DNA of 64,000 nucleotides from Planctomycetota bacterium (GTDB lineage Bacteria > Planctomycetota > UBA1135 > UBA2386). The stretch spans positions 128,001 to 192,000 of the forward strand of contig CANMWZ010000004.1 of the NCBI GenBank assembly GCA_947501605.1, given 5' to 3'. Of this stretch, positions 6,503-36,209 are shown piece after piece (position 1 is the stretch's first letter; every line of letters begins with the position of its first letter). Position numbers and translations under genes: made by a program. The notes under the pieces are model-generated. The model saw only the letters and a program-made list of their open reading frames with translations. It had not been told where the DNA came from and made no database searches.

Positions 6503-8980
6503 ATGCGAGCCGTGACCTCGCCGGAAGCGATCTCCGAGCGCAGCAGTAGTTGCGGTCGGCGTTGCCGCTCGCCGGCTGCTTCGCGGGCTCGCCGCGGAAT
6601 CGACATCGTCCGCACCGACGATGGTCCTGGCCGACCGTCGACCTGGCTCGGCTTGCTTCGCCGACTGGTCCGAAGCCCATTCTTGGCCTGCCTCGGCGCA
6701 CTGCTCTGCTGCGATCGACTCGCGGCGCAGCACGACGGGAAGAGCGCAGCGGCGGGCAGCGAACTCGACGCGCAGCGGATCACCGGACCGGAGTTCCGCG
6801 CCGCGCGCTTTGGTCCAACGCGGTGGCTCGATGGGACGCACTTCGCGACTCTCGAACGCGACGACGAACGACGCGCGTTCGAACTCGTGCGCCACGATGC
6901 CGTCACCGGCGCGCGCGAAGTGTTGATCCCAGCGCATTCGCTGCGCAAGAGCGGCTACGAGTTGCCACTGCAAGTCGAGGACTACGCGATGGCCAAGAAG
7001 GCCGGCGAATTCCTGGTCTTCACCGACAGTCAGCGGGTGTGGCGCCAGAACACGCGCGGCGAGTACTTCGTGGTGCGTCCTCTGGCGGCGCCGCAGCCTC
7101 GTCGCGTTGGCGGTTCGCTGCCGAAGTCGTCGCTGATGTTTGCGAAGTACTCGCCCGACGGCACCAAGATCGCCTTCGTCTCGGGCAATGAGATCTGGGT
7201 CCAGGACGATCTGGCGAAGGAGCCGCGGCAATTGACCACGGGCGGCTCGAGCACCGTGATTCACGGCACCTTCGACTGGGTCTACGAGGAAGAGTTCGAT
7301 TGTCGCGACGGCTTCCGCTTCAGCCCGGACGGATCGCGCATTGCCTTCTGGGAACTCGACTGCTCGGGCGTCGGCGAGTTCCTCATGATCGACAATCTTG
7401 CGGATCGCTACAGCAAGGTCGTCCCCGTGCAGTATCCCAAAGCGGGCACGAAGAACTCCGCGTGTCGCATCGGCGTGATCGACACGGCCGGCGGTGACGT
7501 GACGTGGGTGGCGGTTCCGGGTGACCCGCGTGAGACCTACCTGCCGCGCATGGAATGGCATCCAGACGGCAAGGAGCTGATGGTGCAGTGGCTACCGCGG
7601 CAACAAGACGAACTGCGCATCTATGCCGCCGATGCGACCGATGGCTCGGTGCGCCTCGTGCACACCGAGACGGACGCGGCCTGGGTCGACGTGCGCGACG
7701 ATTTCCGTTGGCTGCAAGGGGGGGGCTCGTACTTCTGGACCAGCGATCGCGACGGCTGGCGTCACGCCTACTCGCAGCCGTGGCAGAAGGGCGAGATCGA
7801 GTTGCTGACACCTGGCGACTACGACGTCAACGCGGTGCTCCACGCCGACCTCGACCAGGGCTCGCTGTACTTTGCGCGCTCGCACCGCACGACCGGGCAA
7901 CAGCTCGCAGCCCTTCTGCCCGGCGGCGTCGAGTTCGTCACGCACGAATGGCGGCAGTCGGGCAGCAAGGACCGCACGAAGTCGCCAGCGATTGCAGAGG
8001 GGTGGCACGACTACGACGTGAGTCCTGACGGTTCGCTGGCGATTCACACGCTGTCGTCGTTCGACGTGCCGCCGCGCATCGAGGTCGTGCGGCTGCCGTC
8101 GCATGAGCCGGTGCGCCAGCTCGAGGACAACGCGGCACTGCGCGCGCGCTACGACACGGTCCAGCGCGGCAAGAACGAGTTCTTCCAGGTTACGACCGCA
8201 GATGGCGTGACGATGGATGGGTGGGCGATGTACCCGCCGACGTTTGATCCGCAGCAGCTCTGGCCGGTCGTCTTCCATGTCTACGGCGAGCCCTGGTCGC
8301 AGACCGTGATGGACACGTGGGCGCTGAAGCACCACCTGTTCCATCGCTGGCTCACGCAGCAGGGCTACATCGTCATGAGCGTCGATGCGCGCGGCACTCC
8401 GGTCCCCAAGGGACGCGCGTGGCGCAAGGCGCTGCACCAGAAGATCGGCGTGCTGAGTTCGCACGACTGGGACCAAGCGGTCGAGGCGCTGTGCCTGCGG
8501 CACACCTGGATGGACCGCTCGCGCCTAGCGATCTGGGGCTGGTCGGGCGGCGGCGCGATGACGTTGAACCTGCTGTTCCGCTACCCCGAGCGCTTTGCGG
8601 CTGGCATGTCGGTGGCCCCCGTGACCGACATCGCGCTGTACGACACCATCTACCAGGGGCGCTACTGCGGGGATCCGCGCCTCGTGCCCGAGGTCTACCG
8701 CAACTGTTCGCCGATCACGTTTGCCGCACAGTTGCGAGGCGCCCTGTTGCTGGTGCATGGCACCGGCGACGACAACGTGCATTGGCAGCACAGCGAGCGG
8801 TTGTTCGACGCCCTGGTAGCTGCTGGCAAGCGATTTGAGTACCTGGCCTACCCCAATCGGACGCACGCGATCGCCGAGGGCGAAGGCACCAGGACGCATC
8901 TCTACGATAGCCTCGCCGACTTCGTGCGACGGCGGGTGGCGGCTGGACCTCGCCAGTTGCCGACCGAAGTGGGCCGCTGA
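6503..8980 (+). CDS. Dipeptidyl peptidase IV, S9B family (true start may lie further downstream)
   Basis: DWVYEEEF, YPKAGTKN, GWSGGG nucleophile, HGTGDDNVH, YPNRTH. Confidence 0.9.
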   Translation: MRAVTSPEAISERSSSCGRRCRSPAASRARRGIDIVRTDDGPGRPSTWLGLLRRLVRSPFLACLGALLCCDRLAAQHDGKSAAAGSELDAQRITGPEFRAARFGPTRWLDGTHFATLERDDERRAFELVRHDAVTGAREVLIPAHSLRKSGYELPLQVEDYAMAKKAGEFLVFTDSQRVWRQNTRGEYFVVRPLAAPQPRRVGGSLPKSSLMFAKYSPDGTKIAFVSGNEIWVQDDLAKEPRQLTTGGSSTVIHGTFDWVYEEEFDCRDGFRFSPDGSRIAFWELDCSGVGEFLMIDNLADRYSKVVPVQYPKAGTKNSACRIGVIDTAGGDVTWVAVPGDPRETYLPRMEWHPDGKELMVQWLPRQQDELRIYAADATDGSVRLVHTETDAAWVDVRDDFRWLQGGGSYFWTSDRDGWRHAYSQPWQKGEIELLTPGDYDVNAVLHADLDQGSLYFARSHRTTGQQLAALLPGGVEFVTHEWRQSGSKDRTKSPAIAEGWHDYDVSPDGSLAIHTLSSFDVPPRIEVVRLPSHEPVRQLEDNAALRARYDTVQRGKNEFFQVTTADGVTMDGWAMYPPTFDPQQLWPVVFHVYGEPWSQTVMDTWALKHHLFHRWLTQQGYIVMSVDARGTPVPKGRAWRKALHQKIGVLSSHDWDQAVEALCLRHTWMDRSRLAIWGWSGGGAMTLNLLFRYPERFAAGMSVAPVTDIALYDTIYQGRYCGDPRLVPEVYRNCSPITFAAQLRGALLLVHGTGDDNVHWQHSERLFDALVAAGKRFEYLAYPNRTHAIAEGEGTRTHLYDSLADFVRRRVAAGPRQLPTEVGR

Positions 8981-9158
8981 GCGCCGCCAGATCGGAACCG
9001 GAGCGTTGGCGGCCGGGGTGGTCGACTGCTGGCACCTCGACGACAGGACGCACCGACGGGACGCACGGGTGAGCCATTCGCCGCGGTAGTTCGGTCCCTG
9101 CCGCTGGTGGTCGACCAGCCTTAGAGGCCATCAGCCAGGGGCGCATCGGCAAGGGGCC

Positions 9159-9195
9159 AAAAAAACTGCCTCGGCGAGCACACACTCGCCGAGGC
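9159..9195 (-). terminator. Rho-independent terminator
   Basis: Perfect 11-bp stem GCCTCGGCGAG/CTCGCCGAGGC (9168-9178, 9185-9195) with a 6-nt loop, followed on the minus strand by AG and 7 U (A-run 9159-9165). Confidence 0.88.
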
Positions 9196-9239
9196 GATCC
9201 CTGCCACCGGGCTCAGGCCCCAATGCATTCATTCCACCG
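9159..9239 (-). ncRNA. Candidate sigma54-dependent small RNA (~80 nt)
   Basis: Lies between a sigma54 motif and an intrinsic terminator. Internal hairpin GGGC-CUGA-GCCC. No complete ORF in the interval. Confidence 0.55.
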
Positions 9240-9249
9240 CCCGCCACCT

Positions 9250-9265
9250 AGCGAGCGCCGTGCCA
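9250..9265 (-). promoter_or_regulatory. sigma54 (-24/-12) promoter
   Basis: Minus strand TGGCACGGCGCTCGCT versus consensus TGGCACG-N4-TTGCW: one mismatch, exact GG-N10-GC spacing. Confidence 0.7.
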
Positions 9266-9410
9266 TGGCCTCAGGAGTTTTGTGGTGGAAAATGTAAGCC
9301 TATTGCCAGAAGGCGATTGGCATGCCATTCCACATATTGCCCCCACGATCTCTAGTGCCTCCGCCGGCCGGGAACCGGCGGATTTCCGTCATCCAGGCGT
9401 CAGGCCGCCG

Positions 9411-10241
9411 TCACCCGGCTGGCGGCGGCTCGCCCGGTATTGGTTCCCCGGCGTCGCCGCGGAGTCGCTTCTTGGCTTGCTGCCAACTCGCCTCTAGCTC
9501 GTCCAAAGAGCGGGTGCGGAGGTCCGGCCCGAGTTCCTGTTCCACCGCGGCGAAACGGGCCTGGAACCGGTCGATCGTGCCGCGCAGTGCGGTCTCTGGT
9601 TCTTGCCCGAGGTGACGGGCGAGGTTGCAGATGCTGAACAGGAGGTCGCCGAGCTCGCTGCCGATCGCTTGGCGGTCGCCGCTGGCGACGGCCTCGTCGA
9701 GTTCGCGCAGCTCCTCGTCAATCTTGGCCCGGGGGCCGATCGCGTCTGGCCAGTCGAAGCCGACCCGCGCCGCCTTCTCGCCGATGCGCAGCGCCCGCAG
9801 GAGCGCTGGCATGGCGGTGGGGACGCCGCTGAGCGCCGAGGTTGCCTTGCCTTGGGCGCGCCGCTCCTCGCGCTTGGACGCTTCCCAGCCGCCGTAGGCA
9901 TGGTCGCTGCCGTGTGCTGCGCGATCGCCAAAGACGTGCGGGTGACGATGCACCAGCTTGTCAGCGGCAGCGGTCGCCACCGCGTCCAGGTCAAACGCTG
10001 CGCGCTCCTGCGCGATCTGCGCGATCATCGCGACGTTGATGAGTACGTCGCCGAGCTCGTCGCGAGCGTTGCGGTCGTCGCCCGTGCGCAGCGCGTCGAG
10101 CGCTTCGTAGGCTTCTGCCAACAGGTGCGGAGCCATCGAGGCCGTCGTCTGCTCCCGATCCCACGGACACCCATCGGGAGCGCGCAGGCGAGCCACGACG
10201 GCAGCGAGGCGGGCCACAGCAGGGAGCTCGCGGGCGTTCAT
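9411..10241 (-). CDS. mazG: Nucleoside triphosphate pyrophosphohydrolase MazG
   Basis: LRAPDGCPWDREQT, DELGD, KLVHRHPHVFG, GFDWP, ELGDLLF. Confidence 0.93.
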   Translation of the reverse strand: MNARELPAVARLAAVVARLRAPDGCPWDREQTTASMAPHLLAEAYEALDALRTGDDRNARDELGDVLINVAMIAQIAQERAAFDLDAVATAAADKLVHRHPHVFGDRAAHGSDHAYGGWEASKREERRAQGKATSALSGVPTAMPALLRALRIGEKAARVGFDWPDAIGPRAKIDEELRELDEAVASGDRQAIGSELGDLLFSICNLARHLGQEPETALRGTIDRFQARFAAVEQELGPDLRTRSLDELEASWQQAKKRLRGDAGEPIPGEPPPAG

Positions 10242-10533: not shown

Positions 10534-11133
10534 ATGGCTTTCGAACTTCCCCCGCTGCCCTACTCCAGCGACGCGCTGAGCCCGCACCTCACCGCCGAGA
10601 CGTTGTCTTTCCATCACGGCAAGCATCACAACGCCTACGTCACGAACCTCAACAACCTCGCCAAGGGGACCGAGTTCGAGACCAAGTCGCTCGAAGAGGT
10701 GATCAAGCTGACGGCGGGCAAGTCGGACAAGGCCGGCCTGTTCAACAACGCCGCGCAGATCTGGAACCACACGTTCTATTGGCACTCGATGAAGCCACAG
10801 GGCGGCGGCAAGCCGACCGGTGCGATCGCGCAGAAGATCGATGCCGACTTCGGCAGCTACGAGAAGTTCGTCGAAGCGTTCAGCCAGGCCGGTGCGACGC
10901 AGTTCGGCAGCGGCTGGGCTTGGCTCGTGCTCGACGGTGGCAAACTGAAGGTCACCAAGACGCCCAACGCCGAGACGCCGCTGTCGACGTCGGCCACTCC
11001 GCTCCTCACGATGGACGTCTGGGAGCACGCCTACTACATCGACTTCCGCAACCGGCGCCCGGACTACATCAAGGTGTTCCTCGAACACCTGGTGAACTGG
11101 GACTTCGCCAACAAGAACCTCGCCGGCAAGTGA
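10534..11133 (+). CDS. sodB: Superoxide dismutase [Fe]
   Basis: [20 protein letters not shown] (Fe-type AAQ), [16 protein letters not shown]. Confidence 0.93.
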
Positions 11134-34883: not shown

Positions 34884-35108
34884 GGCAGCACCTTGGCCGC
34901 GGCGCGGGCTCAGGTCAATGCGCGTTCGGGGCGGTCGGTGCCAGGTCTGCGCCTTGCCGCCCAGGGCGGCTCGATCGTCGGGCGCGGACTGTCCCGAGGC
35001 TGCACCATGACCCAGGGTCATTGCCGAGAACGGCAGGAAGGGGGAACATCCTGCGGCCCTCGGGTAGGTCCATCTCCCTGGATCGCCCGCTCCGTCCCTG
35101 CTTCCACC

Positions 35109-36209
35109 ATGCGTTTCCTCCCTCTCGTCGGCGTCCTTGCCGCATGCAGCTTCTTGCCGGCGCAGACCGCGGCCTTCAGCACCTACGGCGCCGGCTGTTA
35201 CAGCCAGCGTGCCAGCTTCTTCGAGGTCTTTCCGACCAACGCCTTCGACCTGTCGGGGACCACGGCCAATCCGCGCGGTTATTCGATGATCAACATTGGG
35301 CAGGGCTGGCTCGTGTTGCCATTGCTCAGTGGCTGGCGCACGCCGTCGGCGGCGGCCCAAGTCGTGACGCTCCTGGATGACTCGGTCTCGCCGCCGTTGG
35401 CGTTTGGCTTCACGATGCCCTACCCGGGGGGGACGACGGACAGCGTGTGGGCCAGTTCGAACGGGTTCTGCTACCTCGCCTCGGACTCGAGCAACGGTTG
35501 CTGCAGTGGCGATGCGGCGCAGATGCTCGCAGGCGCGCCGCGCATCGCCGGCTTGTGGATGGATCTCAACCCTGCGGCCGGCGGCCAGATCACTTTGGAT
35601 CGCGACACGCAGAACGGCGGCGTTGCCTACTTGACCTACAGCGGTGTGCCCGAGTTTGGCGCCAGTGGCTCGCTGACCTTCCAGGTCGCCTTCTATTCGT
35701 TTGGCCAGATCGACGTGCTCTACGGCCCCTGCATGAACGCCGGCCACACCGCGCTCTCTGGCTGGAGCCCTGGTCGCGGCGTCGCCAGCCCCGGCGCAAT
35801 GAACCTGTCGGCCCTGCTGCAAAACGTCATCATCACCGGCCCGGACCAAGATCCGTTGGTGTTGTCGAGCACCGGGCGTCCGCGCCTTGGCACATCGATG
35901 CCCGTGGCGATCACCAACGTGCCGAACACGTCGCCGTTCGTCTGGATTGCCGTCGGTTCGACCCAGTATCCAAACGGCGTCGACCTCGGCGCCATCGGCA
36001 TGTCTGGCTGCGTGCAGTACGCGAGCTTCGAAAACGCGTTCGGGGCGCCGACCGTGGGGGCGACGGCGACGTGGCAGCTCGGGGTCCCCAACGCCACCGG
36101 GCTGATCGGTCAGCGCGCCTACCTTCAGGCACTGGCAATGGCCCCTGATCTGAACAGTCTGGGTCTGATCGTCTCCAACGCCGCGAACCTGCTGGTGGGC
36201 ACGCTCTGA
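35109..36209 (+). CDS. Secreted protein (NIDO-like N-terminal region plus lineage C-terminal domain)
   Basis: Signal peptide. FSTYGAGC, DD...FGFTMPY, SSNGF, IAGLWMDLNP. C-terminal DLGAIGMSGC...LGVPN...AYLQAL...GLIVSN. Confidence 0.72.
   Translation: MRFLPLVGVLAACSFLPAQTAAFSTYGAGCYSQRASFFEVFPTNAFDLSGTTANPRGYSMINIGQGWLVLPLLSGWRTPSAAAQVVTLLDDSVSPPLAFGFTMPYPGGTTDSVWASSNGFCYLASDSSNGCCSGDAAQMLAGAPRIAGLWMDLNPAAGGQITLDRDTQNGGVAYLTYSGVPEFGASGSLTFQVAFYSFGQIDVLYGPCMNAGHTALSGWSPGRGVASPGAMNLSALLQNVIITGPDQDPLVLSSTGRPRLGTSMPVAITNVPNTSPFVWIAVGSTQYPNGVDLGAIGMSGCVQYASFENAFGAPTVGATATWQLGVPNATGLIGQRAYLQALAMAPDLNSLGLIVSNAANLLVGTL

Follow-up and report, generated by a model that had tools for sequence, protein, structure and literature searches.

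The window under study is a stretch of 64,000 nt from the genome of an uncultured Planctomycetota bacterium, which is present in freshwater-sediment samples. On its minus strand, the gap between mazG and a convergent peptidase gene holds what appears to be a small RNA (sRNA) gene with its own promoter and terminator. The features of the region are the following:

9411..10241, minus strand: mazG (nucleotide pyrophosphohydrolase; PF03819, E 1.9e-31), upstream of the RNA and in the same direction
9387..9413, minus strand: probable enhancer made up of three TGACG (YGWCR) sites (9413, 9402, 9391; 11-bp period)
9275..9330, no strand assigned: AT-rich spacer between enhancer and promoter box, a possible IHF/HU bending site
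9250..9265, minus strand: sigma-54 -24/-12 promoter box, TGGCACGGCGCTCGCT
9159..9239, minus strand: small RNA gene of about 81 nt (model R1, 71.1 bits)
9228..9238, minus strand: arm 1, a purine-rich conserved 5' segment, GGUGGAAUG here and GGUGGAAAG in 47 of 59 copies
9202..9227, minus strand: hairpin 1, variable in sequence
9198..9205, minus strand: arm 2, GGCAGGGA, kept more widely than any other motif
9159..9195, minus strand: intrinsic terminator, a GC-rich hairpin (9195-9168) followed by U7 (9165-9159)
6662..8980, plus strand: S9/DPP-IV-type peptidase (PF00930, PF00326), convergent and downstream, start uncertain

On the other side of mazG, and divergent from it, lies an Fe/Mn superoxide dismutase gene (10534-11133, plus strand), which occupies the same place in several relatives.

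The promoter box (9265-9250) is situated 146 nt behind the mazG stop codon. Counting from the GC of the -12 element places the start of transcription (+1) at 9239, or at the G at 9238. By itself such a motif is within chance expectation, at least one match to TGGCAC-N5-TYGCW being present in 23 of 100 shuffles of the window; we consider the box real because it is conserved, not because of the motif alone. It was found in all 17 distinct copies of the locus that were collected independently of the promoter. In 16 of these it lies 25-27 nt before the start of the RNA model and in the 17th, a diverged copy, slightly further up. Within a larger set of 59 distinct copies, gathered with a promoter-anchored pattern, the conserved GUGG begins at +3 in 37 copies and between +1 and +5 in every one. 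Conservation thus begins where transcription is predicted to start, and not from the mazG stop onwards. These results bear out the original prediction, which had placed a -24/-12 element here with a start near 9239, and had accepted that loss of the motif in relatives, or lack of rpoN, would count against it. The genome carries two rpoN copies, encoding two sigma-54 paralogs (L001, L002). It further encodes three proteins of the IHF/HU family and 18 sigma-54 activator domains of full length. From the layout of the promoter and established knowledge of promoters of this type, we infer that the RNA is controlled by sigma-54 and an activator.

When 60 relatives were searched at the DNA level, 11 genomes gave intergenic matches at 71-85% identity, the adjoining mazG matches being at about 67-78%. 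With a covariance model built from the RNA alone (33 sequences), the RNA was detected in 39 of 42 family genomes; two of 108 genomes of other families matched weakly, in both cases with no promoter box (G038, G087). A second draw of genomes gave 14 of 14 within the family and five weak matches among 106 others. As for the three family misses, one contig ends inside mazG (G105), one genome has no mazG match (G035) and one has mazG with no box behind it (G032). The order to which these genomes belong is, we take it, the OM190/UBA1135 group. Scanning assembled contigs with a sequence pattern yielded 58 stretches, of which 24, having box and terminator, were kept; these are titled Planctomycetota or 'Brocadiaceae' MAGs, one being labelled CL500-15. 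The remaining 34 were rejected by eye as chance matches lacking the -12 box and terminator (the six that were scored reached at most 16 bits). Nine matches in viral contigs scored at most 16.2 bits.

Comparison of the mazG-S9 peptidase interval among relatives, a check proposed from the outset, showed promoter box, RNA and terminator to be conserved jointly, as one unit. The suspected novelty also held: Rfam gave no credible match for the window stretch, for 10 loci of this short form or for seven loci of the long form described below. We are highly confident that the sRNA family is real and new, in the sense of being absent from Rfam; motif collections outside Rfam could hold it. Literature searches, as far as the accessible records go, turned up no study of a Planctomycetota sRNA, and the accessible part of a sigma-54 regulon survey covering the phylum mentions sRNAs 0 times (PMC12316311).

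The anatomy of the RNA could be derived from the aligned copies. Arm 1 has a mean unpaired probability of 0.68 (57 copies); in one position it separates the present genus from the others (AUG/AAG). Cells of helices 1 and 2, in hairpin 1, are paired in 82.5% and 95.4% of cases. Across the whole structure, 93.7% of cells are paired, against 75.3% in shuffled alignments (none of 500 shuffles reaches the observed value), and 18 of 20 pairs undergo changes on both sides, namely 13 of 13 in the terminator and 5 of 7 in hairpin 1, with slid controls at 40-51%; the alignment behind these figures was fitted to the model and leans towards it, comprises related sequences and includes three short spurious rows. 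An RNA of about 80 nt ending in a stem plus U7 had been anticipated, and the RNA predicted here agrees with this, the stem consisting of 12 pairs, one of them G-U (fold z = -2.63). Also in agreement with expectation, no complete reading frame lies within the RNA. The sole AUG (9232) runs to a stop beyond the terminator, and the spacing of the two arms is spread over the three frames (18, 8 and 9 of 35 copies), so that no reading frame or peptide is kept. This comparison shows the RNA to be non-coding.

In most copies the RNA has the orientation of mazG and lies 166-329 nt behind it, and the terminator may therefore also end mazG transcripts. Others lie 1-2.8 kb away or elsewhere in the genome. 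At one locus a two-gene pair, resembling by eye a Doc/Fic toxin and an AbrB-type antitoxin, is interposed between mazG and the RNA (L064:2807-3453). Copies at 1-2.8 kb from mazG, and those situated on a different contig, all retain box, array and fixed spacing. Five cases have tandem copies, every one of which is equipped with a box and an array of its own (G024, G031, G036, G090, L101); the second copies, although located after a terminator, retain box, array and spacing as well, those of G031 and G090 with altered arms. Relocated and tandem copies having promoters of their own, the unit is independent of mazG, as the idea of a free-standing sRNA gene required.

These same observations weigh on the simplest rival explanation, that the hairpin is the mazG terminator only and the box a silent or chance motif in the mazG 3' UTR. 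The co-directional position behind mazG would fit, as would the fact that no other U-tailed terminator occurs between mazG and the RNA. So would one RNA contig. Parts of the region are represented in six RNA runs, which come from three studies; the data are assembled contigs from four runs, which carry no end or strand information and in which absence of cover elsewhere has no evidential weight. Contigs from runs X1 and X4 cover the gene. Run X1 covers all bins, and DNA carry-over is therefore possible; in X4 a single isolated contig of 255 nt (9134-9388) spans the intergenic stretch, is longer than the predicted RNA of about 80 nt and extends past its predicted start. Run X6 has no contig over the RNA, and a contig of X3 (8942-9176) stops inside the hairpin. 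Nevertheless, the retention of box, array and spacing away from mazG and in tandem copies placed after a terminator, together with the onset of conservation at +1 instead of at the mazG stop, makes this explanation very improbable.

Two hairpins and a terminator shortly after a promoter are also reminiscent of an attenuator, which raised the prospect that the element acts in cis on the downstream gene, as a riboswitch or attenuator leader, or encodes a leader peptide for it. We consider this scarcely credible because the gene downstream is not constant and in many cases is convergent: here it is the S9 peptidase, which follows the RNA in only two of the loci that were clustered, and one recurring convergent family is found in 27 loci. 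No conserved co-directional downstream gene was seen among the loci; moreover, Rfam gave no match and no reading frame is kept.

Upstream of the box, the sites bound by the activator had originally been sought in a palindrome and in repeats of TATTGCC. Both exist in the window, as TGGCATGCCA (9327-9318) and as two GGCAATA/TATTGCC copies, yet each occurs in only one of 35 copies of the locus, and neither is upheld as the enhancer. The AT-rich patch fared better: A+T content is 0.42-0.57 between -70 and -20, compared to about 0.28 further up, a peak conserved in 35 copies. The IHF-like element said to lie within it did not stand as a conserved feature, the strict IHF consensus occurring in 0 of 35; the window has TAAGCCTATTG in this patch (plus strand, 9295-9305). 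The enhancer is probably an array of YGWCR sites with an 11-bp period, outside the region originally described, the first site (9413) overlapping the mazG stop codon. Clusters of such sites lie 110-180 bp before the box, in either orientation. Pairs spaced 11, 22 or 33 bp apart occur in 55 of 59 copies. Their mean number is 3.7, as against 0.07 for stretches drawn at random from the genome. Although these copies served to derive the motif, it recurs in places outside the defining set.

Of 1224 box-like sites genome-wide, the two with the best arrays are the promoter of this RNA and a site on another contig (G000:C79:1236). The latter belongs to another sigma-54 promoter (G000:C79:1068-1511; L102), which likewise has the 11-bp YGWCR array and is directed towards a 61-62-aa membrane protein without Pfam match that precedes a ThrE-type exporter. 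Promoter and array are kept in five of five genomes of the genus. Weak homologs of the protein in other genera precede a different gene and have no clear array-plus-box arrangement; an ESM Atlas search with the 62-aa protein gave nothing above 0.9. When the enhancer-plus-box pattern was run on 81 family genomes, it retrieved the RNA promoters and otherwise mostly coding-region noise, as judged from 40 of the 64 rows listed. No array was found beside an activator gene.

From these elements we envisage that one of the approximately 18 sigma-54 activators would bind the 11-bp YGWCR array, that the DNA would bend at the AT-rich spacer and that the sigma-54 polymerase would then make an RNA of about 80 nt ending at the hairpin. 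We hold this part of the scheme to be very probable.

A related but longer arrangement is found in the sister family (f7). Behind mazG, the array is present in all 11 genomes, with 3-8 sites each. The box is full in nine and imperfect in one (G049); the remaining contig ends too early. A long form of the RNA was recognized in 10 of the 11, measuring about 180-190 nt in the nine that were aligned. Its 5' end is CACAACGGUGGGA in seven of these nine. Compared with the short form it has two hairpins, of which the second carries UCAGGC as an invariant loop, and arm 2 is present as well. The 3' part is a nearly invariant module ending in UGGCAGGGAA, after which comes the terminator. The exact pattern of this module was met in five contigs, all titled Planctomycetota. 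Covariation is seen in its helices (86.9% paired, compared with 72.0% in shuffles, none of 500 being as high), the structure having been derived from the same nine sequences. GGGA motifs recur 13-15 nt apart, three in seven of the aligned copies and two in the other two, and arm 1 is predicted to be largely paired (unpaired probability 0.02-0.57). Model R1 scored all ten f7 loci weakly, at 10.8-19.5 bits and partly by way of the terminator, and none of eight other loci; it aligned the 5' arm of the short form to the middle motif of the long one. Nothing similar was seen behind mazG in 13 loci of seven other families, one of them truncated. We infer that short and long forms are homologous from the position, array, box and both arms that they have in common. 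The comparison of the two amounts to a natural deletion experiment pointing to the working core.

Two further sigma-54 RNA candidates were noticed in the genome. On the minus strand, at G000:C57:13318 and 12857 (L290), two almost identical units follow each other in tandem at a distance of 461 bp. Both have a perfect sigma-54 box, then about 180 nt forming long hairpins, and a U-tract, with no credible Rfam match; they are a candidate for another sRNA family. Their terminator loop and the loop of the long form have UCAGGCGA in common. The second candidate sRNA, in an intergenic gap at G000:C16:28623 (minus strand; L103), comprises a sigma-54 box and a single long hairpin of about 100 nt ending in U6, also with no credible Rfam match.

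The long form invites the thought that the RNA has another job altogether, as precursor of a processed shorter RNA, as sponge for another sRNA or as scaffold, with the 80-nt form a minimal remnant. Its two extra covarying hairpins and invariant loop would be accounted for, and the accessible text on the myxobacterial sRNA Pxr describes processing from a long to a short form (PMC5568312). However, neither arm pairs strongly with the C57 or C16 candidates and the sequence is not that of a known housekeeping RNA; we deem this reading improbable.

As to how the RNA might act, the G/A-rich 5' arm, perhaps together with arm 2, would pair with the C-rich translation-start regions typical of the lineage, and pairing would lower translation of a few mRNAs, differing between genera, without Hfq. 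Given the RNA, we regard this mode of action as evenly poised between right and wrong; the whole chain, an independent trans-acting sRNA gene driven by sigma-54 and working through base pairing, stands marginally lower. Start regions of the lineage have a C content of 0.33-0.53 between -8 and -1. Precedents are Pxr, a sigma-54-driven RNA with tandem paralogs and no Hfq (accessible text of PMC5568312), and the two-seed sRNA GibS (accessible text of PMC11697453). Neither Hfq nor LSm (PF17209, PF01423) was found in this genome, which is 91% complete. The notion that the unpaired 5' region could serve as a seed is plausible, the segment being mostly unpaired and conserved, but the searches for a target gave none.

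In these searches, complements of either arm were not enriched before start codons, and the best duplexes across all called start regions were no better than those of shuffled arms (8 shuffles per query). Gene starts came from a home-made caller, so some of them will be wrong. A two-arm pattern before AUG occurred in 5 of 36 family genomes versus 6 of 24 others, and inspection by eye of the matches listed for CTTTCCACC before ATG revealed no gene recurring across genera. Individual candidates were likewise discarded. Perfect two-arm sites at window 35095-35108, right before an ATG, and at G000:C9:80181 are absent from the orthologs examined (three close orthologs and 18 homologs). A candidate site before the HU gene is absent, by eye, from 49 other orthologs, and an arm-2-like site at the start of mazG, where it coincides in part with a probable -10 box, is not conserved either, being seen at 11 of 69 starts. 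Equally negative tests would be expected if the targets were few or imperfect.

Some features of the scanned regions deserve mention in their own right. The product of the gene at window 35109-36209 (plus strand) is secreted, has no Pfam match and is one of a large set of paralogs, with about 30-38 matches per genome in five relatives. Leaders of HU genes (L297-L346) have a hairpin with GGGCGGTTGGGC kept in many family genomes, followed in five by GTGGCAA. Of all words preceding start codons, those with the strongest enrichment (TAGACT, TAGGCT, TAGCAT, TATCGT) resemble -10 boxes a few bases before the ATG, and -10-like words near the ATG also occur in many mazG orthologs, including the one in the window (10241). 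Leaderless transcription may be common in the lineage.

Lack of a conserved mRNA target is also what one would expect if the RNA, with the same gene and control, were a decoy whose repeated GG(G)A(A) motifs titrate a protein that binds RNA, in the manner of CsrB/RsmY but with a different protein; the two RRM proteins encoded in the genome would be candidates. The two arms are alike, the long form repeats GGGA at regular distance, the model matches the short 5' arm to its middle motif, and tandem duplications would raise the dose. On the other hand, CsrA was found in none of 61 genomes, and a search of the present genome, 91% complete, did not reveal RapZ; the GGA motifs, two in the short form and 3-4 in the long, lie outside hairpin loops, unlike those of CsrB-type RNAs; same-strand motifs are not enriched in mRNA leaders; and single copies break a GGA (G003, G009, G136). 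We rate the decoy as a possibility, somewhat against the odds. A fuller version seems rather doubtful to us. Here the RNA would be the decoy arm of an undescribed post-transcriptional system, operating in a lineage in which searches revealed neither CsrA nor Hfq; a sigma-54-activated scaffold of GG(G)AA repeats would titrate an RNA-binding protein, and its 80-nt form would be a minimised descendant of a four-motif ancestor of about 185 nt that survives in the sister family. Between pairing and decoy we slightly favour pairing because of the size of the RNA, its unpaired conserved 5' end, the C-rich start regions and the paralogs with changed arms.

Whichever way it acts, the RNA, which almost all genomes of this widespread, uncultured family have retained, offers a handle on a signalling pathway in the family, to which the defined enhancer and the second co-regulated promoter add value, and on sRNA action where Hfq and CsrA were not found.

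Box spacing, rpoN and activators, conserved upstream sites, terminator and non-coding body place the gene in the class of sigma-54 sRNAs. CsrB, RsmY and RsmZ are protein-sequestering RNAs with repeated GGA motifs, carried in hairpin loops in the CsrB type. A partial likeness is seen in the GGA-containing motifs of the RNA described here, CAGGGA among them, but these number only 2-4 and lie outside loops, and CsrA was found in none of the 61 genomes searched. Qrr1-5 of Vibrio are short sRNAs, sometimes multicopy, transcribed from sigma-54 promoters under an enhancer-binding protein, and need Hfq. Ours is similarly short and sigma-54-promoted and differs in the apparent lack of Hfq in its genome, of an Rfam match and of a known target. 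GlmY of Enterobacteriaceae (sigma-54, GlrR, IHF) has several activator sites, an AT-rich bending region and a -24/-12 box, as here; the GlrR site is TGTC-N10-GACA (accessible text of PMC3045617), in contrast to single YGWCR sites every 11 bp in either orientation, and RapZ, the ligand of GlmY, was not found in this genome. The one- or two-seed sRNAs GibS and FopS of Bacteroides, bound by the RRM protein RbpB (accessible text of PMC11697453), have other promoters and sequences; this genome also carries RRM genes. The closest system in kind is Pxr. Pxr lies behind the activator gene nla19 and conserves its stem-loops, whereas the present RNA lies behind mazG, has no Rfam match, varies its stems and keeps its single-stranded arms. 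In the accessible texts (PMC5568312; PMC5684412), Pxr combines a sigma-54 promoter, an intergenic position, stem-loops leading to a terminator, a lineage-restricted distribution, tandem diverged paralogs and a host devoid of Hfq, and in all these respects the two are alike.
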